Below, one piece after another: positions 1,073 to 54,765 of a DNA stretch of 64,000 bases. The position numbers and the translations under genes were made by a program. This stretch comes from Candidatus Undivivens industriae. GTDB taxonomy: Bacteria > Omnitrophota > Gorgyraeia > Gygaellales > Profunditerraquicolaceae. How positions within the stretch are numbered: position 1 is the stretch's first letter; each line of letters starts with the position of its first letter. The DNA lies in contig JAAYZR010000020.1 in the NCBI GenBank assembly GCA_012514745.1, forward strand, positions 13,293 to 77,292, given 5' to 3'. Below the pieces are notes generated by a model. The model saw nothing but the letters and a program-made list of their open reading frames with translations, did not search any database and was not told where the DNA came from.

Positions 1073-2047
1073 CTATAGATATTCTCCTTTGCCCAGATAT
1101 GAAGCGTAATCTTTCACGCTCTCCTCGAGGGAAGCAAACTCGTGATCGCAGCCGGCGTTTCTCAATTTTGAGATATCTGCCTGCGTGAAATACTGATATC
1201 CCTGCCTTATATTCTCCGGCATATCTATATACTCGATCTTGGCCGCCTGGCCGGCGGCAGCGAAAACCGCGCGCGCCAGATCGTTCCAGCTCCTTGCCGC
1301 GCCTGTGCCGAGATTGAATATACCGCTCTTCCGCCGTTCCCGGAAGAAATAATACATCACCCCGACGGCGTCCTTGACGTAGACGAAATCCCTCTTTTGC
1401 CCGCCGTCCTGATAGGCGGGATTGTGAGACTTGAACAGCCGTATCGATCTGCCGGCGGCCGCCTCTTTGAAGTTCCGGCAAACCAGGCTCATCATCTCTG
1501 CCTTGTGATATTCATTAGGCCCGAACACGTTGAAAAACTTGAAGCCGGTGGCCTTCCTGAAACAGCCGTTACGCAGCAGCCAGAGATCAAAAAGATGTTT
1601 CGAGTAACCGTAAATATTGAGCGGTTTCAGACAAGGCAGCCTCTCCTCCTCGTCCCCGTAGCCGCTCTCGCCGGCGCCGTAAGTGGCGGCCGAAGAAGCG
1701 TAAATGAATTTCGCCGAATGGGCGAACGCCCACTCGGCGAGGCGCCTGGAATATTCGTAATTATTCTTCAGGTAATACGCGGCGTCGGTAAGAATGGTGG
1801 AACTGCAGGCGCCAAGATGGACTATCGTCCCGATACCGTCCAATTTCCCGGACTCAAGCAGTCCCGGGAGATCGTTTTTATGGACGTAATCCATAAAACG
1901 CTTCCCCCGCAGGTTCACCCATTTGGCGTCGCTGCCCAGATCGTCGACAACGATTATATCATATATACCTTCCCGGTTAAGTTTCCGGAGAAAACAACTG
2001 CCGATAAACCCTGCCCCTCCAGTGAGAATTATCTTTTTTTTAGCCAT
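1073..2047 (-). CDS. hldD: ADP-L-glycero-D-manno-heptose-6-epimerase
   Basis: 324 aa; N-terminal GGAGFIGS Rossmann motif and overall HldD/RfaD-like sequence (YASSAATYG, NVFGPNE). Confidence 0.85.
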   Translation of the reverse strand: MAKKKIILTGGAGFIGSCFLRKLNREGIYDIIVVDDLGSDAKWVNLRGKRFMDYVHKNDLPGLLESGKLDGIGTIVHLGACSSTILTDAAYYLKNNYEYSRRLAEWAFAHSAKFIYASSAATYGAGESGYGDEEERLPCLKPLNIYGYSKHLFDLWLLRNGCFRKATGFKFFNVFGPNEYHKAEMMSLVCRNFKEAAAGRSIRLFKSHNPAYQDGGQKRDFVYVKDAVGVMYYFFRERRKSGIFNLGTGAARSWNDLARAVFAAAGQAAKIEYIDMPENIRQGYQYFTQADISKLRNAGCDHEFASLEESVKDYASYLGKGEYL

Positions 2048-2086
2048 TCGAGGTAAGAAAAAAACGGCCCGCTGAGAAGACGCGCC

Positions 2087-2419
2087 TTAATCCTTCTTGA
2101 TCAGGAATTTTCCCAGCAGTATAACTACCGCCACGGTAATACCGATCCCGATAACCGCCGACGAGATATAGGCGAAGCTCAGATTACCCAACCCTTTCTC
2201 TTCCCATCCCTGGAAGGCGTAATCAGGAACGGGAGCGCTCCAGAGAGCCGAAAGCCTGGTAAATCCCTGCGGGACATATCCCACTAATTCCTGCAGAGTC
2301 TCCGCGCCCCACTCTCCCCAGGCGTCCCCCGCCTTGAAATATTCGGGAAGCAAAAGCCCCAGGGGGGAAAGAAACGCCAATAGAATCAATCCCAGCCAAA
2401 GTTTAGAAGTAGTTCTCAT
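2087..2419 (-). CDS. PDGLE-domain / CbiN-like small membrane component of the Ni/Co ECF transporter
   Basis: 110 aa with N-terminal TM, a PEYFKAGDAWGEWG segment (PDGLE-like) and a C-terminal TM; immediately downstream of cbiM. Confidence 0.55.
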   Translation of the reverse strand: MRTTSKLWLGLILLAFLSPLGLLLPEYFKAGDAWGEWGAETLQELVGYVPQGFTRLSALWSAPVPDYAFQGWEEKGLGNLSFAYISSAVIGIGITVAVVILLGKFLIKKD

Positions 2420-2423
2420 TTCC

Positions 2424-3107
2424 CTACCCCTCCTTTCCCGAAACGATCAATGAAGGATCCTGTTTCTGCAGGTATTTGACAACCAACGCGGTAATAAACG
2501 CCTCGACCCAGCCGAATACCAGCAAATGCTCTCCGAGCATCATCGGAACGGCGACATTAAGGCCGTAAGGACAATACAACGACTGGTCCGTCGGGGTTCT
2601 GTACAATAAAGGCTGTATGCCGAACATCAGCGCCGTAGTCAATGCGGCTATGTTCAACGCCAGGTAGCCGGCCGCGGCGGCGGCAAAAACCCTGCGGCCG
2701 GACGTTGAAGGCGAATTGCCGCTTATGAACTTGTAAATATAATAGCCGGTGAAGACCTCGACAAACGCCATATTGAAACAATTCGCGCCGACGGCGGTTA
2801 TGCCGCCGTCGCCGAAAAGCAGGGCTTGGACCACCAAGGCCACAGTGACCGCTATACAGGCGGCCCAGGGGCCGAGAAGTATAGCCGCCAGCACCGCGCC
2901 CACCGCGTGTCCGGTAGTCCCTCCGGGGATGGGGACGTTGAACATCATTATAACGAAACAGAAAGCGGCGCTGATGGCAAGCAGAGGGATTTGTTTGTTT
3001 TTAAGAGTTTTTTTAACCATCCGCGAAGCCAGCGCCCATACAGGCAACATCACCGCATACATCACTCCGCTCGTGGCGGGCCCCAAGTATCCGTCGGGTA
3101 TATGCAT
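2424..3107 (-). CDS. cbiM: ECF transporter substrate-specific component CbiM/NikM (nickel/cobalt)
   Basis: Starts MHIPDGYL, the hallmark N-terminus of CbiM/NikM; 227 aa polytopic. Confidence 0.9.
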   Translation of the reverse strand: MHIPDGYLGPATSGVMYAVMLPVWALASRMVKKTLKNKQIPLLAISAAFCFVIMMFNVPIPGGTTGHAVGAVLAAILLGPWAACIAVTVALVVQALLFGDGGITAVGANCFNMAFVEVFTGYYIYKFISGNSPSTSGRRVFAAAAAGYLALNIAALTTALMFGIQPLLYRTPTDQSLYCPYGLNVAVPMMLGEHLLVFGWVEAFITALVVKYLQKQDPSLIVSGKEG

Positions 3108-3155
3108 TTTTCTCTCCTGTGTTGATTGTTGTTCCTATCTCCAGGATATGTATGA

Positions 3156-3180
3156 TAGCACAAAAGCGATACTTGTGCTA
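3156..3180. promoter_or_regulatory. Perfect inverted repeat TAGCACAA-N9-TTGTGCTA between nikR and cbiM; candidate NikR operator
   Basis: 8-bp perfect arms separated by 9 bp, sitting in the 90-bp nikR-cbiM intergenic region; preceded by a GTATGA hexamer resembling the E. coli NikR half-site. Confidence 0.4.
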
Positions 3181-3197
3181 CTGAAAAACAAAATTTT

Positions 3198-3611
3198 TTA
3201 CACTCCTCTTCCGGTGGTCGCGGCGTTCAAGGATAAATGTTTCACGCCTTTTGTGGAACGCAGAAGATCGGCCAGCTCCTTAATCTCTGCGGCCTTCCCT
3301 TTTGCGGCGATCATCTCCAGACAATTGGAGTGGTCGAGATGAATATGCTGGGTGGAAATTATCAAATGCTGAAAATTATGCTGCACCGCCGTCAACTTGC
3401 TTAACAGTTCGCGTTTATGATGATCGTAAATAAGCGTGATAGCCCCGGCGACTACATTATCGTCGGCCCACTCTTGTTCCACCAGTTCCCGCCGGATAAG
3501 ATCCCTTATCGCTTCGGAACGGTTGCCGCACTTACGCTTCCGGATCAGGGCGTCGAACCCGGAAACCAGATTCTTTTCTATGGAGACGCCGAATCTTATG
3601 AGATTGCCCAT
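3198..3611 (-). CDS. nikR: Nickel-responsive transcriptional regulator NikR
   Basis: 137 aa; ribbon-helix-helix N-terminus (RSEAIRDLIRREL) and a C-terminal His/Cys metal site (HIHLDHSNC). Confidence 0.85.
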   Translation of the reverse strand: MGNLIRFGVSIEKNLVSGFDALIRKRKCGNRSEAIRDLIRRELVEQEWADDNVVAGAITLIYDHHKRELLSKLTAVQHNFQHLIISTQHIHLDHSNCLEMIAAKGKAAEIKELADLLRSTKGVKHLSLNAATTGRGV

Positions 3612-26826: not shown

Positions 26827-27327
26827 TTATTCAATCAAAACTATCCCGTAATAATTCCCCTTACACCCGGCAGAAGAAATCACCTTTATCGGATAACCAT
26901 TGGCGCGTACAGTAGAGTAGACGTCTATGCCGCAGGCTTCCATTGACGGACGGGTTTTGGCCGGATTACGACAGAACTTCCCGCATTTGCTGCATAACTG
27001 ACACGGCCCGGCCCCCATCCCGAACGCTTTATAATAACCGTCCAGGAATATCTCCCGCTCCAAAGCCGGGATCAAGGCGTGGATATCCGTGTATTCGTCG
27101 CCGTGCACCAGCAGGGCTTTCCTATAGAAACTTATAACCCGCCGCGTCACCTCCGGCGCCGGCGAATATGGAGGACAGGTCAGACTCTGTCCATAGCCGT
27201 CGCAGCCGAACTGGCACTTCATCCTCACCCAATCGGCAACCACGATGCTCCTCGCGGAGATCGTCTTTGCGTCTCTTGCCCCCATCTCCTTCGCGCGTTT
27301 TATGTATTTAGTGTATTTCCGCATCAT
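26827..27327 (-). CDS. DUF2284-like predicted metal-binding protein (Cys-rich)
   Basis: CQFGCDGYGQSLTCPP and CQLCSKCGKFC motifs; 166 aa. Confidence 0.5.
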   Translation of the reverse strand: MMRKYTKYIKRAKEMGARDAKTISARSIVVADWVRMKCQFGCDGYGQSLTCPPYSPAPEVTRRVISFYRKALLVHGDEYTDIHALIPALEREIFLDGYYKAFGMGAGPCQLCSKCGKFCRNPAKTRPSMEACGIDVYSTVRANGYPIKVISSAGCKGNYYGIVLIE

Positions 27328-27829
27328 GTATTATGTCACCCGGGTTACGTTCTGTATCCGTATCCCATTGTTCGTGATTATTCACAATATATTCGCGTAT
27401 ACGGCTCAATGAAGATTCATCCCGGATGATGTGATCATAAAACGATTTTTGCCAATGGAATTTGTCCCCGGATTTAATCATTTCATTTATGCGCCGTGAC
27501 GAAAATGTCTTTAACGCGCGGATGATTTCCGGCAATCCATGATTTTTTGTAGGGAACGGTTTCAAACCGTTCCCTGTGTTGTCAATTACAACGATCCCAT
27601 GCACGTGATTCGGCATTACGATAAATTCATCCAATTCGATATTCCGATAATGATTGGACAAATCAACCCAGCACGTCGATACAAAACGGCCGTTTTCATT
27701 TAATTCCATGACGCCGTTTTCTATGCTGCCAAACCATTCCCGCCTGCCCTGCGTGCAAATGGTAACGAAATAACACCCGTTCTGCGAATAATCGTAATTC
27801 TTTAAACGATTCGCTTTGCGCTGATCCAT
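27308..27829 (-). mobile_element. REP-associated tyrosine transposase (RAYT / TnpA-REP, IS200-like Y1 HUH)
   Basis: HUH motif NHVHGIVV and the catalytic Tyr motif WQKSFYDHIIRDE; 173 aa. REP-like hairpins lie inside and just upstream. Confidence 0.8.
27552..27574. repeat. REP-like perfect hairpin GGGAACGGTTT-C-AAACCGTTCCC embedded in the RAYT coding sequence
   Basis: 11-bp perfect inverted repeat; it encodes residues NGLKPFP in frame. Confidence 0.7.
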
Positions 27830-27836
27830 AATTACC

Positions 27837-27857
27837 GGAACGGTTATAAACCGTTCC
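27837..27857. repeat. REP-like hairpin GGAACGGTT-ATA-AACCGTTCC 8 nt upstream of the RAYT start codon
   Basis: 9-bp perfect arms with the same core as the intragenic copy. Confidence 0.7.
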
Positions 27858-27865
27858 CTACTGGT

Positions 27866-28129
27866 TCATTTCTTCTGAAATTTATATTTAATGAACAAAA
27901 CTAACCCGGCGACGAGGATCAGAAGCGTAACGCTGTTGGCCAGGATAATGGCAAAGTTTCTCAAATGTATCCCATACACCAGCCAGAGAAAGATCCCGGC
28001 CATGAACTGCACGATGGTCACAATACTTATATCGTTCACCGACTTGGTGCGGTATATCTTGATCACCTGCGGTAAGAAACCAAACATAGTCAGGAACGCC
28101 GCCGATAATCCTATAATATTCCAGAACAT
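27866..28129 (-). CDS. SemiSWEET / PQ-loop sugar transporter (3-TM)
   Basis: 87 aa, three TMs, PQ motif in TM1 (FLPQVIKIYRTKS). Confidence 0.7.
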   Translation of the reverse strand: MFWNIIGLSAAFLTMFGFLPQVIKIYRTKSVNDISIVTIVQFMAGIFLWLVYGIHLRNFAIILANSVTLLILVAGLVLFIKYKFQKK

Positions 28130-28188: not shown

Positions 28189-28216
28189 AACTCCCCGGCT
28201 TTCAAGCCGGGGAGTT
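28189..28216 (-). terminator. Hairpin terminator downstream of the lipoprotein gene
   Basis: AACTCCCCGGC-TTTCAA-GCCGGGGAGTT, an 11-bp stem, followed on the minus strand by TTCATTTGTC. Confidence 0.45.
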
Positions 28217-28227
28217 CTGCGGTTTGA

Positions 28228-29013
28228 TTAATTGTTGGAGCGCATAAGCTTACGTAATTCCTGGGCCGGTATTGACTGGACTTTCAGCTTCCCGTTGCCG
28301 CCCTGAAGCGGAAAATCTATGTTTTTGACGGTGTATGCTCCGCCTTTTTCAATAATCCTGCCGACCTTGTAACCCAGAAAACAAGGGCGGCCGATAACAA
28401 GACTGCTTTGCTCGTTGGCCTTCCATTCGATGCTCAAGCTGCTTTTTACGATCTTTTCTATCTCGCTTCCCGGAGCGATCTCAATCTTTTTATCGTTCTC
28501 ATCGATCAGCTCATATTCCAGGCTCGAGACCTGAAGCAGGGCCAATACGATATATCTGTCTTTGAGGTTCAAATGGGGTTTCCGGCTTCTTATTGCCGGT
28601 AATATCACGTTTTCAAGCCGGTCCTCGGTAAGATCATATTGATAAACATCTCCCAGTTTGAGCTTGAACTTTTTCACGCGTAAAGCTTTGAGCGTCCCTT
28701 CAACTTTACCTATAACATCCGCTTTCGCCGACAGTGAAAATGTCTTCTCGCCTGAAGACGCGGGCAGATAGACCTTCCGTTTCAAATCCGCCATCGTTTT
28801 CTCGTTCTCTTCTTTGGTAAAAATATCATCTATGAAAACTACCGGGAGAGAATTCAAAGAATAGGTGCGGTAAATATTCCCCAGTTCCTGTTTTTCGGGA
28901 ATCGGAAGAATAGGGCAAAAGCCGTTTGTCTTCAATGCCCTCGTAAGCGGATCGGTCGCGCACCCGGCAAGGAAAACGAATCCCAAAATGAAAATGCATT
29001 TGATTTTCTTCAT
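28228..29013 (-). CDS. Lipoprotein of unknown function
   Basis: Signal peptide with the lipobox FLAGC; 261 aa; no recognisable domain. Confidence 0.6.
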   Translation of the reverse strand: MKKIKCIFILGFVFLAGCATDPLTRALKTNGFCPILPIPEKQELGNIYRTYSLNSLPVVFIDDIFTKEENEKTMADLKRKVYLPASSGEKTFSLSAKADVIGKVEGTLKALRVKKFKLKLGDVYQYDLTEDRLENVILPAIRSRKPHLNLKDRYIVLALLQVSSLEYELIDENDKKIEIAPGSEIEKIVKSSLSIEWKANEQSSLVIGRPCFLGYKVGRIIEKGGAYTVKNIDFPLQGGNGKLKVQSIPAQELRKLMRSNN

Positions 29014-38758: not shown

Positions 38759-39310
38759 CTATCTTGCCAAAGCTATGCCTGCAAGCAGCGCTTTCCTGTT
38801 CATCTCCAGCAAGTCACGTTTCTGCTCTTTGATTATCTCAAGTATCTCTTCCACGGAGAACATCTTTTTGACCGCGATATAGGCGCCGAGCGCCACCATA
38901 TTGGCGGCCTTCAGAGAACCGGCGGCCGCGGCCGCGGTCTCTGTGAAAGGATACCCGCGGACATCGATAGCGGTTTGAACCGGAGCCTTTGCCAGCGAGG
39001 AATTATATAACAACAACCCTCCCTGTCTGAGCCGCGGGAGAAATCTTCCGAGAGAAGGCTGGTTCATCACGATCAAGGTATCGGCTTTTTCCACGTAAGG
39101 AGATCCCTGTTCCGACTTGGAGATCACCACCATGCAATTGGCGGTGCCGCCGCGGACTTCGGCTCCGTAAGAAGGCAGCCACGTAACCCGGAGGCCGGCG
39201 CGCATGCCGGCCTCGGCCAACAGTTTCCCCAGAAGCATTATCCCCTGCCCCCCGGAACCGGCGGCGATTATTTTCTCGTCCTGCCCCAATATTTTGGCTG
39301 ATTTAACCAT
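38759..39310 (-). CDS. 2-oxoacid:ferredoxin oxidoreductase, gamma subunit
   Basis: IIAAGSGGQG motif. The start overlaps the beta-subunit stop by 1 nt. Confidence 0.8.
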   Translation of the reverse strand: MVKSAKILGQDEKIIAAGSGGQGIMLLGKLLAEAGMRAGLRVTWLPSYGAEVRGGTANCMVVISKSEQGSPYVEKADTLIVMNQPSLGRFLPRLRQGGLLLYNSSLAKAPVQTAIDVRGYPFTETAAAAAGSLKAANMVALGAYIAVKKMFSVEEILEIIKEQKRDLLEMNRKALLAGIALAR

Positions 39311-43418: not shown

Positions 43419-44751
43419 TTCCGCGCACCTCCGTTACCTGACCGGTTATTTCGCCGTCGTGTAATTTTATCCTTATCTCCTCTCCGGCGGAAACATCCCC
43501 CGCGTTCCTGATCACCCCGCCTGCGGCGGAAAAAGTGATGCTATACCCCCTGGAAAGGACTTTTAAAGGGCTCAATCCGTTAAGATTGGCGGCGGCCGAC
43601 CTCAAAACCGCGGTTTTGATCTGCACTAAATGCGCCCAGGCCGTTGAAGCCCTGCCGGACAGTTCGGAAACTCTCCGGCGGAACTGCTCAAGCATAGCCT
43701 TCGGATTCAACAGCCGCAGTTTCTTGGCGGCGGAGTCCATGCGGCTTGCGCCGATCTCCAGGTAATGCGCCGCGCTCATCTGCATGCGGTGCGCCAGAGC
43801 ATCCAGATCTTCCCTCGATGAACGCGTAAAATCCTGCAATCCCGCCCGCAGAGAAGCTGTAAGCCGGGAAAGTTTCTGTCTCAACTCTTCTTTGTCCGGG
43901 ACTACCAGTTCCGCGGCCGCCGAAGGAGTCGGCGCCCGCAGGTCCGCCGCCAGATCACAGAGGGTCCAGTCTCGCTCGTGCCCCACGGCCGAGATCACCG
44001 GGATCTCCGAATCATAAACCGCCCTCGCCACCGGCTCTTCGTTGAAAGCCCAGAGATCCTCGATACTGCCGCCGCCGCGCCCGACAATTAAAACCTCTAC
44101 GCGCTCATTTTTCCGCGCGCGCGCGTTGTAAACGTTAAACTCCCTGACCGCGGAAGCGATCTCTCCGGCCGCCCCTTCTCCCTGCACCTTGACCGGATAC
44201 AAAATCATATGCATCCCGCTGAAACGCCCGGCCGCCACCTTCAAGATATCTTTAAAGGCGGCGCCGGAGGCGGAAGTGACGACGCCGATGCGAGACGGCA
44301 AATAAGGGATCTTACGCTTATGCTCCGAAGCAAAAAGCCCCTCCTTCTCCAGTCTCTTTTTCAACTGCTCCAGGGCCAGCTGCAGGCTTCCGAGCCCTTT
44401 AGGCTCCAGGCTGCGCACGTAAAGCTGATAGCGGCCGTCCCTCTCATAAACGCTGACGCCTCCGCGGCAAATCAGCTTGTCGCCGTCTTTCAACTCGAAC
44501 TTTATGCCGCGCGCCGTCTGCGGAAAAATGACGCATTTCAACAGGCCGGAGGCGTCCTTCAAATTAAAGAATACGGTGCCTGTGGCTATCCTCGTCGCCC
44601 CGGAAACCTCCCCTTCCACCCACACATCCGGAAACCCCGCCTCCATCAGTTCCTTTATCCGGCGGTTGACCTCCGAGACGGTAAAAATCTTCCGTCCATC
44701 TTCCGGGCGCCCGGTAAAAAAATCGTCTTCATCTTCCGGAAAGTTCTTCAT
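43405..44751 (-). CDS. xseA: Exodeoxyribonuclease VII large subunit
   Basis: OB-fold N-terminus (FTVSEVNRRIKEL...VWVEGEVS) and catalytic core. The track ORF extends to 44802; the ATG at 44751 avoids overlap with the upstream gene. Confidence 0.85.
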   Translation of the reverse strand: MKNFPEDEDDFFTGRPEDGRKIFTVSEVNRRIKELMEAGFPDVWVEGEVSGATRIATGTVFFNLKDASGLLKCVIFPQTARGIKFELKDGDKLICRGGVSVYERDGRYQLYVRSLEPKGLGSLQLALEQLKKRLEKEGLFASEHKRKIPYLPSRIGVVTSASGAAFKDILKVAAGRFSGMHMILYPVKVQGEGAAGEIASAVREFNVYNARARKNERVEVLIVGRGGGSIEDLWAFNEEPVARAVYDSEIPVISAVGHERDWTLCDLAADLRAPTPSAAAELVVPDKEELRQKLSRLTASLRAGLQDFTRSSREDLDALAHRMQMSAAHYLEIGASRMDSAAKKLRLLNPKAMLEQFRRRVSELSGRASTAWAHLVQIKTAVLRSAAANLNGLSPLKVLSRGYSITFSAAGGVIRNAGDVSAGEEIRIKLHDGEITGQVTEVRGNGGD

Positions 44752-52725: not shown

Positions 52726-54765
52726 TCAACGCAGAGAAATACCGGGGTGGCCGGAAAGGGCCTGGACGACGGCCGCATGCGCGGGCGCGACCTCCGCTTC
52801 GGTCAACGTTTTCTCTTTCGAGCGGTAAACGCAGGATACCGTCAACCCTTTATAGCCGGCGGATATCTGCTCCCCTTTATAAACATCGGACAACTTCAGT
52901 TCTTTCAATAATCCGCCGCCCGCCCGCCCGGCGAGCTCGAAGACATCCCGCAGTGATATCTCCTCTTTCAACAACAGGCTGATATCGCGGGTCACCGCCG
53001 GATAAAGAGCCATTTTGCGAAAACTCTTGCGCCGAGCCAGGCGCGAACGTACAACCGGTTCCAACCTTATCTCGGCGGCCGCCGCGCTCCGGTTTTTTAT
53101 GTCGAATGCCGCGGACTGCTTCTTGTCCAAAACAATAACTTCTCCCAGCTTTTCGTCTCCCGCGTATACGGAGATATTCCCGCCTACGGAATGCTGCCTG
53201 AAAGAATAATCCTGTACTCCCGCCCAGGAAAAGAGTTCCTCAAGCGCACCCTTTATGTGCAGGGGGCCGAATTCTTCCTCGCAGAACGAACTGCCGTTAA
53301 AATACCTGCGCGTGCCGCAGACCGTCAGAGCCAGTACTTTTTCTTCCCTGTGCCCGGAAGAAGGAGTCATATAATAAATGTCCGCGACCTCGAAAAACCG
53401 CAGGTCTTCCTGTTTTTGATTAATGTTATACGCCAGACAGCGCAGTAGTCCCGGCACGACCGAGGTGCGCAGGACTTCCTGTTCGCGGCTCAAAGGGTTT
53501 AAAACCTCTATCGCCTCGCCCGGTTTCTCCGAAATTACTTCCAGTGAAGTTTTCTCCACAAGACCGTAGGTTACGGTTTCATGGAATCCCTGTCCGGCGA
53601 TAAGTCTTTTAATCCCGGAAACGCACTGCCAGGAGGACAACCCGGACGGATCGGCCGAGACGAAAGGGAGAGTGGGGACTATCCTGTCGTATCCGTATAT
53701 GCGCGCGATCTCCTCCTCCAGGTCGGCCTGCTGTCCGACGTCTTTCCTGAAAAGAGGGACTTCCACTTTGAGCGTGGACGAGGAGACTTTCTTCACTTTA
53801 AATCCCAGGCCGGAGAGAATACGGTAAGCCTTTCCTGTGGCCAGCTTGATATTCAAAAGTTTCTCGGCCCCGGTAACGGAAAATTCGATCTGCTTGCGTC
53901 CGGCGGCCCCGGAGCCCTTGCGGATAAAAGCCTGCGCTTTCCCGCCGCAGAGAGAAACAATAAGCATCACCGCGCGCTCCACCGATAATTTGACCCTTTC
54001 GGCGTCCACCCCTCTTTCGAAACGGTAGGACGCTTCTGTCTGCGCGGCCATCAAACGACAGCCTTTTCTTACCAACACAGGGTCGAAAATCGCGCCTTCC
54101 AGCAGAACGTTGACTGTACCCGAAGAAACCTCGCTCGCTTCCCCGCCCATGATTCCGGCCGCGGCCACCGGCTTACCGCTGTCGGCGATGATCAGTATTT
54201 CGGGCGTCAAAAGATGGGTTTTCCCGTCTATGGTGGTCAGGCTCTCTCCCTGTCCGGCCCGGCGCACGATTATCCGGCCTCCGGATATCTTGTCCAGATC
54301 AAAGGCGTGCAAGGGCGCGCCCCATTCAAAAAGGGCGTAATTGGTTATGTCCACTATGTTATTTACGCTCCTGCAGCCGACACTTTCCAGCCTCCTGCGC
54401 AGCCATTCCGGCGAAGGCCCGACCTTTACGCCTTTTATGACCGTAGCGGTATACAAAGGGCAGTCCCGGACGCTCTCCAGGGAAACGGAAACCCCGGCAA
54501 CCTTGCTCTTACCGGGAACGCTCTTGAAGAATCCGGCGGGAGCCTTGAATTTTTTACCGAGGATCGCGGAAGCCTCTCTTGCCATGCCGGTCATGCAAAA
54601 ACAGTCGGAGCGGTTGGAAGTGATCTCGGCGTCGAATATGAAATCCCCGTCCTGCTGAATAACGGAACCGATCTCGTGCCCGGCCATGGTGAATTTATGC
54701 GCCAGGGTCTCCGCGTCCACTGTTATCTTGACGAAATCTTTCATCCAGTTATAACTGAATTTCAT
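52726..54765 (-). CDS. pheT: Phenylalanyl-tRNA synthetase beta subunit
   Basis: MKFSYNWMKDFVKI N-terminus; 679 aa. Confidence 0.93.
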   Translation of the reverse strand: MKFSYNWMKDFVKITVDAETLAHKFTMAGHEIGSVIQQDGDFIFDAEITSNRSDCFCMTGMAREASAILGKKFKAPAGFFKSVPGKSKVAGVSVSLESVRDCPLYTATVIKGVKVGPSPEWLRRRLESVGCRSVNNIVDITNYALFEWGAPLHAFDLDKISGGRIIVRRAGQGESLTTIDGKTHLLTPEILIIADSGKPVAAAGIMGGEASEVSSGTVNVLLEGAIFDPVLVRKGCRLMAAQTEASYRFERGVDAERVKLSVERAVMLIVSLCGGKAQAFIRKGSGAAGRKQIEFSVTGAEKLLNIKLATGKAYRILSGLGFKVKKVSSSTLKVEVPLFRKDVGQQADLEEEIARIYGYDRIVPTLPFVSADPSGLSSWQCVSGIKRLIAGQGFHETVTYGLVEKTSLEVISEKPGEAIEVLNPLSREQEVLRTSVVPGLLRCLAYNINQKQEDLRFFEVADIYYMTPSSGHREEKVLALTVCGTRRYFNGSSFCEEEFGPLHIKGALEELFSWAGVQDYSFRQHSVGGNISVYAGDEKLGEVIVLDKKQSAAFDIKNRSAAAAEIRLEPVVRSRLARRKSFRKMALYPAVTRDISLLLKEEISLRDVFELAGRAGGGLLKELKLSDVYKGEQISAGYKGLTVSCVYRSKEKTLTEAEVAPAHAAVVQALSGHPGISLR

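Follow-up and report, generated by a model that had tools for sequence, protein, structure and literature searches.

A REP-associated tyrosine transposase gene of subclass 2.4 type with probable cognate REP hairpins inside its coding sequence and ahead of its start codon

Can a gene carry, within its own coding sequence, the DNA structure that its product presumably recognizes, and what would keep such a structure intact? This question is raised by a locus in a stretch of 64,000 nucleotides from Candidatus Undivivens industriae (Omnitrophota; assembly GCA_012514745.1, contig JAAYZR010000020.1, positions 13,293 to 77,292), which we refer to as the window and whose own numbering is used throughout. 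It contains an open reading frame (ORF) with the properties of a REP-associated tyrosine transposase (RAYT), where REP denotes a repetitive extragenic palindrome, and two hairpins, one inside the gene and the other in front of it. In our interpretation, to which we assign a probability of about 0.8, the gene encodes a domesticated REP-type HUH/Tyr endonuclease for single-stranded DNA (ssDNA) that belongs to subclass 2.4, and both hairpins are cognate copies of its REP, one of them embedded in a tolerant loop of the protein. The following features underlie this interpretation:

27308–27829, minus strand: RAYT (tnpA_REP-like) gene of the TnpA_Y1 subclass 2.4 type, called as an ORF of 173 amino acids and classified with Pfam, NCBIfam, an AlphaFold2 (AF2) model and Foldseek
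27599–27607, minus strand: HUH motif H75-V-H77 of N74-HVH, aligned to HMH of the E. coli protein
27548–27577, minus strand: T85-GNGLKPFP-T94, the peptide encoded by the internal REP, located in a loop that joins the HUH strand to the subsequent helix; a coil in the AF2 model with indel-rich flanks
27422–27454, minus strand: W motif W126-Q127...D132-H133..R136, in the alignment with 4ER8 the counterpart of the residues that contact GTAG in E. coli TnpA_REP
27377–27391, minus strand: catalytic Tyr motif Y147-IVN-N151 (YIVNN, with H in place of the consensus P at the next position), aligned to DYIYINP of the E. coli protein
27549–27575, plus strand (antisense to the gene): internal REP with a GTAG foot at 27549–27552, a perfect 12-bp stem and a 1-nt loop, located in the sequence
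27837–27861, minus strand: upstream REP with a sense-strand GTAG foot at 27861–27858, a 9-bp stem and a 3-nt loop, located in the sequence

The identification of the gene as RAYT, already proposed in a preliminary description of the locus, was upheld by profile searches and structure prediction. The 173-residue protein matches the Pfam family Y1_Tnp (PF01797) with 34.9 bits, above the gathering threshold of 23, and its best-scoring NCBIfam model is the equivalog REP-associated tyrosine transposase (REP_Tyr_transpos, NF047646) with 68.2 bits at a curated cutoff of 80, while the model of IS200/IS605 TnpA (NF033573) yields 22.2 bits compared to a cutoff of 55, which places the protein outside that family. 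Its AF2 model, built on 47 homologues, has a mean predicted local distance difference test score (pLDDT) of 85. When submitted to Foldseek, this model retrieved the solved Y1 transposases 2XQC, 2A6M and 4ER8 with E-values around 1e-6 and a probability of 1.00. The top matches display the HUH endonuclease fold of the Y1 family, as found in TnpA of IS608, ISDra2 and IS200, and the superposition on E. coli TnpA_REP (4ER8) gives a template modelling (TM) score of 0.55 and a root mean square deviation of 4.6 Å. A search of the PDB with the window protein as single sequence returned no match, and a profile of the 47-sequence family reaches 4ER8 at an E-value of 5.7e-4.

The same 47 homologues define the catalytic and recognition motifs. 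N74, H75 and H77 are invariant and conform to the HuH signature NH[IFV]H of subclass 2.4. Equally invariant are W126 and Q127, the ‘WQ’ of this subclass, which align with W94-Q95 of 4ER8 and thus with a W-Q...E/D-H..R region to which GTAG recognition has been assigned in E. coli TnpA_REP (Quentin et al., 2018; PMC6006769). This W motif had initially been taken for the tyrosine motif, in the form WQKSFYDHIIR. The catalytic motif is instead YIVNNH further downstream, and the location of the hairpin between HUH and Tyr holds. Y147 and N151 of the catalytic motif are again invariant, and while class 2 proteins share the signature Y---NP (PMC6006769), the window sequence Y147-IVNN-H152 agrees with the homologue consensus YIxNNP in five of six positions, with P changed to H. 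In the AF2 model, the HUH strand (residues 75–82) is followed by a coil at 83–98 and a helix at 99–117, with the pLDDT minimum (<50) at residues 91–93. The coil corresponds to the insertion of variable length and sequence between β3 (the HUH strand) and αC that characterizes subclass 2.4, and it contains, as in this subclass, an in-frame REP with GT[AG]G foot between HuH and Y. In relatives, indel-rich sequence is found on both sides of the peptide. Since the peptide falls into a low-confidence coil and genes without the hairpin have a spacer that is about 12 residues shorter, the protein can take up arbitrary sequence in this loop.

Both hairpins carry the tetranucleotide GTAG at the foot of a stable stem-loop, which is the hallmark of a REP. 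The plus strand at 27549–27575 reads GTAGGGAACGGTTTCAAACCGTTCCCT, with perfect 12-bp arms at 27551–27562 and 27564–27575 that enclose the 11-bp arms (27552–27574) originally noted, and its sense strand codes for T85-GNGLKPFP-T94. The second hairpin, GGAACGGTT-ATA-AACCGTTCC at 27837–27857, is separated from the ATG at 27829 by a spacer of 7 nt, not 8 as first reported. This upstream REP begins 4 nt past the stop codon of the PQ-loop ORF that precedes it, and it is kept at the same position in two metagenome copies of the locus (L081, 98% identical, and L082, 95%). It is the one copy that flanks the window gene in the manner of a REPtron; there is no copy downstream because the 3′ end of the gene overlaps the next ORF. 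The pattern GGAACGGTTNNNAACCGTTCC (≤3 mismatches) is found exactly twice in the window, with 0.04 occurrences expected and two or more matches in none of 100 shuffled sequences, and a scan for hairpins of any sequence with a GT[AG]G foot and a stem of at least 7 bp detected only these two within the 64 kb. As RNA, the internal hairpin is predicted to fold with –17.4 kcal/mol (z –4.4) and the upstream region with –18.6 kcal/mol (z –3.5). The internal REP of the window lineage (the window, L081 and L082) is single-footed, as GTA in the sense foot has changed to ACA (V to T), leaving ACAG; this loss of the sense-strand GTAG is restricted to the lineage, and relatives are double-footed with the sequence GTAGGGAACGGTTTNAAACCGTTCCCTAC.

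To place these observations into the context of the family, we analyzed 160 homologous loci from genomes and metagenomes and four further loci picked for variant residue pairs, with counts referring to 152 distinct genes with recognizable motifs. A perfect hairpin of at least 9 bp is located between HUH and WQ in 118 of these genes (78%) from many phyla, compared to 13 of 435 length-matched segments drawn at random from these loci. The 118 hairpins contain 65 different loop-proximal stem cores, whereas their ends are conserved as GT[AG]GG and/or CC[CT]AC in 93 cases, usually in the form GTAGGG...CCCTAC. With respect to the codons, 56 genes have GTAG in frame 0 and 22 in frame 1, and in no case does it occupy the frame that would yield TAG as a codon. 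Consequently, the encoded peptides are diverse: besides VGNGFKPFPT they include VGAIHELPL from GTAGGGGCAATTCATGAATTGCCCCTAC, GRGTACRAPT from GTAGGGGCACGGCATGCCGTGCCCCTAC and VGNKNFCSLP from GTAGGGAACAAAAATTTTTGTTCCCTAC. Among the best 120 protein hits, which are 57–99% identical and span many phyla, almost all have VGNG[LF]KPFPT at the position of the hairpin, and the exceptions swap two residues jointly, with D..S, E..S, T..V, A..A or V..T in place of the standard N..F. These joint swaps agree with the pairing of stem positions 4–6 with 18–20, and each variant residue pair is encoded by a perfect double-foot palindrome. The conserved entity is thus the DNA hairpin, and GNGLKPFP is merely its translation. 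A minority of homologues have no hairpin at all between HUH and WQ (L016, L025, L051, L061, L020 and L006); these have the shortened spacer described above and otherwise look intact; they would offer natural ‘empty-site’ controls for the importance of the embedded REP. The proposal that a REP has inserted in frame into its own transposase is correct with respect to the in-frame copy; a recent insertion into the window gene is rejected, as relatives of 50–75% identity share the hairpin at the same site.

Two or more REPs or tandem partial duplications were observed in the same loop at L085:10250–10410 and in the proteins P0072, P0088, P0014, P0016, P0080, P0116, P0120 and P0100, for example as VGNGLKPFPTEGDLKPFPT and repeated GLKPFQNTDDDSK units. 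The loop between HUH and WQ looks like a hot spot for REP-associated duplication.

The conservation of the embedded copy is most pronounced in the clade of the window gene. A first codon test, circular in part since its genes had been picked through their DNA core, was repeated with a selection by peptide only, on eight lineages encoding GNGxKPFP, and complemented by a sliding-window identity scan. The eight lineages have identical codons in the hairpin, GGG AAC GGT TTN AAA CCG TTC CCT, with a second in-gene copy of L085 as sole deviation, where the synonymous pair AAT..CCA is compensated, while codon usage is mixed at other conserved residues of these genes. The preliminary description had considered the case that orthologues have these residues without a palindrome; they contain both the palindromic DNA and the frozen codons. 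The 26-nt hairpin, bordered by indels on both sides, is 97% identical among the eight lineages, with the loop base alone varying, compared to 67% in the remainder of the gene, and it constitutes the most conserved 26-nt segment, ahead of a runner-up with 88% that covers the catalytic region. The embedded copy is thus actively maintained, either by direct selection or by repeated correction from other copies, both of which speak against simple neutral persistence.

Copies outside of the genes were examined by a two-arm hairpin search with foreign-core controls, which replaced a search with a single 9-nt arm and one mismatch that had proven too noisy. For 30 of 61 loci, the core of the internal copy recurs as full hairpin in the flanking ±300 nt, compared to 32 of 2940 tests with foreign cores; in a larger set, a flanking copy with the gene’s own core was present in 49 of 118 loci. 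Together with the GTAG foot, this match between internal and flanking copies justifies the designation REP-like given in the preliminary description. Upstream copies precede the beginning of the protein match by 8–268 nt (median 64), with the window copy at the near end, and beyond the gene region the DNA of relatives contains additional copies at a density of about 2.4 per 100 kb. The REP family of the window (GGAACGGTT) also flanks the RAYT of a Thiodubiliella symbiont (L003, OY821614.1), with four copies upstream and four downstream, and dispersed copies are found in L085. In L163 (contig JBGGHH010004871.1 of GCA_041643075.1), a gene next to the RAYT that resembles EF-G (1241–3307) holds a REP of the window family in frame, ATAGGGAACGGTTTCAAACCGTTCCCTAC at 1778–1806, which is translated as IGNGFKPFPT. 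The arrays in L003 and the copy in the EF-G-like gene indicate that the REP family of the window behaves as a dispersed, mobile REP.

Both of these loci show further variation. In L003 (5700–10900), the flanking copies, GTAGGGAACGGTTTGTAACCGTTCC, are each followed by a T-rich run and hence are terminator-like, the RAYT’s own internal copy is degenerate (GAATGGTTATAAACCATTC), and a second REP family, GGAAGGGTTACAAACCCTTCCCTAC, forms regularly spaced arrays 3–4 kb upstream. In L163, the internal REP of the RAYT deviates slightly from the copy in the EF-G-like gene and reads GGGGACGGTTT, and a third variant, GGGGAGGGTTT, is located 29 nt upstream of the RAYT.

On this basis, the REP of the window would be a GTAG-footed, G+C-based stem-loop, with a first copy in the 36-nt gap before the start codon and a second placed in frame in what is probably a tolerant loop on the protein surface, after the HUH strand and ahead of the next helix. 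If the protein acts in analogy to E. coli TnpA_REP, it would bind to the hairpin extruded in ssDNA, for example at a replication fork, reading the GTAG foot with the residues W-Q...D-H..R and cutting or rejoining the DNA nearby. We infer that the embedded copy would keep one target physically linked to the gene of the enzyme, and that the upstream copy, at the ribosome-binding region, would be placed to damp translation. Such damping is plausible in this gene, given that 7 nt separate the stem from the ATG, that a Shine-Dalgarno sequence cannot be seen and that the gene lacks a promoter of its own, though it is not a property of the whole family.

Several points weigh against our interpretation. 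The score of the RAYT model NF047646 (68.2 bits) stays below the NCBIfam cutoff of 80, and the Y motif of the window protein ends in H where the family has P. With GTAG changed to ACAG on the sense strand, the internal copy may be a poorer substrate on that strand. For the source organism, the term ‘repetitive’ in the name REP is unproven, with two copies in the 64-kb window, and its closest genome relatives, L001, L002, L004 and L041, contain no other copy within 20 kb. Six peptide words served as seeds for the analyzed loci, among them KPFPTKNH, which is itself translated from the REP and may enrich for close relatives that bear the hairpin. The nucleotide conservation could also originate from repeated copying off other REPs instead of selection on the internal copy. 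Finally, activity data for subclass 2.4 proteins are absent from the papers that we found; recognition of a GTAG-footed ssDNA hairpin with cleavage nearby is established for the enzymes of E. coli, Stenotrophomonas and Marinomonas (PMC8266576).

The reason for the strong conservation of the embedded copy is the remaining point of interest. It might be a selected cis-element, kept perfect because the enzyme must act on the copy inside its own gene, a proposal that we put forward tentatively and regard as possible but doubtful. If it applies, the embedded REP would serve as linked ‘seed’ or master copy, with enzyme and target being inherited, transferred and evolving together, or as a self-limiting feedback site, and the coding sequence would be constrained more strongly by a recognized DNA structure than by its own catalytic motifs.

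A neutral passenger is somewhat less probable still, and we find it rather unlikely. According to this explanation, a mobile REP has landed in a permissive loop, where it persists harmlessly, as implied in Quentin et al., 2018 (PMC6006769); it would be kept uniform by occasional copying from other genomic REPs and not by a function of the internal copy. The explanation draws on the location of the peptide in a low-confidence coil of the AF2 model, on homologues that look otherwise intact despite lacking the hairpin and about 12 residues, on the presence of the same REP in frame in the unrelated EF-G-like gene of L163, and on the tandem duplications and second copies in the loop, which suggest a hot spot instead of a tuned element. 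A passenger would, however, be expected to decay, yet no stretch of the gene is more conserved than the hairpin (97% vs 67%), its codons are frozen and its changes compensatory. Of 152 homologues from many phyla, 78% have retained it, and several relatives lack a template copy within 20 kb.

Control of expression at the level of RNA would assign a different role to both hairpins, with the upstream copy hiding the ribosome-binding region and the internal copy slowing ribosomes or attracting RNases, thus keeping the level of a potentially harmful nuclease low, possibly with the protein bound to them. The stability of the two structures as RNA (–18.6 and –17.4 kcal/mol, z –3.5 and –4.4) would fit such a function, as would the finding of neither a Shine-Dalgarno-like sequence between the upstream stem and the ATG nor a promoter-like site between the upstream ORF and the RAYT, so that transcription probably reads through from that ORF. 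A down-regulation of RAYT expression by REP hairpins, as in IS200, has in fact been proposed (Di Nocera et al., 2013; PMC3733652). Still, the distance of the upstream copy varies between 8 and 268 nt (median 64) and half of the loci have no flanking copy, so that blocking of the start site does not characterize the family. GTAG/CTAC feet on both strands fit the recognition of DNA and not of an RNA hairpin, and HUH enzymes act on ssDNA. As an explanation of the pair of hairpins, we thus consider RNA-level control to be unlikely.

An intrinsic terminator or attenuator inside or ahead of the gene is highly improbable. The G+C-containing stem-loops, and in case of the upstream hairpin its position 4 nt past the preceding stop codon, could be read this way, but on neither strand does a T-run follow the hairpins (CTACAAAAAA comes after the internal and GGTAATTATG after the upstream one), and neither appears in the output of a terminator scan. 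For these reasons, and since no promoter-like site was found ahead of the gene, we rejected both the terminator and the promoter reading. The idea that VGNGLKPFPT is a functional peptide whose palindromic coding is accidental, despite the near-invariance of this peptide in the 120 best protein hits, is refuted by distant homologues in which unrelated peptides at the same site are each encoded by a perfect palindrome, with 65 stem cores in two reading frames, by stem codons that are all frozen including the fourfold-degenerate ones, by residue pairs that co-vary in compensatory manner exactly as base pairing predicts and by the non-coding copy upstream of the gene.

The RAYT is tightly packed within an array of genes on the same strand, which encode a lipoprotein-like ORF, the PQ-loop protein, the RAYT itself, a DUF2284 protein, a cytidine/CMP deaminase and a nitroreductase-like protein. 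Its immediate neighbours are:

27866–28129, minus strand: PQ-loop ORF upstream of the RAYT
26827–27327, minus strand: next same-strand ORF, a DUF2284 predicted metal-binding protein

The gap between the RAYT and the PQ-loop ORF amounts to 36 nt and is occupied by the upstream REP, and at its 3′ end the RAYT overlaps the DUF2284 ORF by 20 nt (27308–27327). Other palindromes were noted in the window. At 28189–28216, in the gap between a 261-residue ORF (28228–29013) and the PQ-loop ORF, AACTCCCCGGCTT / AAGCCGGGGAGTT form a perfect inverted repeat of 13 bp around a 2-nt loop; it shows no sequence kinship with the REP and is absent from the output of the terminator scan. Imperfect palindromes centred on GCGGCCGC / CCGCGG at 232–249, 38910–38947, 43909–43924 and 53063–53094 rank among the longest inverted repeats of the window and may merely reflect G+C-rich coding sequence.

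The architecture described here has been published before. In the classification of Quentin, Siguier, Chandler and Fichant (BMC Genomics 19:475; PMC6006769), subclass 2.4 of TnpA_Y1, equivalent to RAYT group 4 of Bertels et al., 2017 (PMC5581495), is distinguished by the HuH sequence NH[IFV]H, WQ, YIxNNP and the variable β3-αC insertion, its REPs are of ‘long’ and ‘double foot’ types with GT[AG]G...C[TC]AC, and REPs in frame within the gene are its predominant and unique feature, with the suggestion that these insertions affect the protein little. The assumption of the preliminary description that RAYTs are not interrupted by their REPs is hence untrue for this subclass, and the gene of the window is a further metagenomic example of it. 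REPs inside RAYT genes are not mentioned in Nunvar 2010, Di Nocera 2013, Bertels 2017 or Corneloup 2021, and a literature search found no functional work on in-gene REPs later than Quentin 2018. Our analysis adds to this classification the conservation at the nucleotide level, the compensatory residue pairs, the usage of reading frames and the statistics of the match between internal and flanking copies. It makes subclass 2.4 a convenient system for studying how REPs and their enzymes stay matched, and a test case for a gene that carries the recognition site of its own product as heritable ‘address label’. For annotation, the lesson is that recurrent peptides of the type VGNGLKPFPT, VGAGLKPAPT, VGAIHELPL and GRGTACRAPT represent translated REPs and not protein motifs.

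When compared to known systems, the window gene is closest to subclass 2.4, with which it shares NH[IFV]H, WQ, a YIxNN-type motif, the β3-αC insertion and REPs with GT[AG]G feet, as well as the scattered distribution over many phyla and the low copy number. It differs in having YIVNNH in place of YIxNNP, an internal REP that lacks one foot and an upstream REP that abuts the start codon. In TnpA of the IS200/IS605 family (IS608, ISDra2 and IS200), subterminal ssDNA hairpins are recognized via a 5′ guide tetranucleotide. The window protein shares the Y1 HUH fold of these enzymes, whereas it contains Y---N instead of Y---Q, and its gene, which sits singly in a same-strand gene array, lacks IS ends, tnpB and multiple identical copies. 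The likeness to E. coli TnpA_REP (RayT, YafM; PDB 4ER8), a member of subclass 2.2, comprises the HUH/Tyr fold, the alignment of HUH, W-Q...H..R and Y---N residues, a GTAG-footed hairpin as target and cognate REPs flanking the gene as REPtron, with a sequence similarity that is seen by profile only (E 5.7e-4). The E. coli protein has the motifs DHLH, WE and YIHYNP, and its REPs are bulged and imperfect, with none of them inside the gene (PMC6006769). Its HUH strand and FSSR helix are moreover separated by about 6 residues, compared to about 27 in the family of the window, in line with the initial impression that the segment is an insertion relative to E. coli RayT and with the homologues without hairpin that are shorter by about 12 residues. 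Finally, REPs in coding genes have been described (Di Nocera et al., 2013; PMC3733652), where a GTAG-tagged palindrome is likewise tolerated in frame, but in the present case the host gene encodes the REP’s own presumed enzyme, and the insertion is near-universal in the subclass instead of sporadic.

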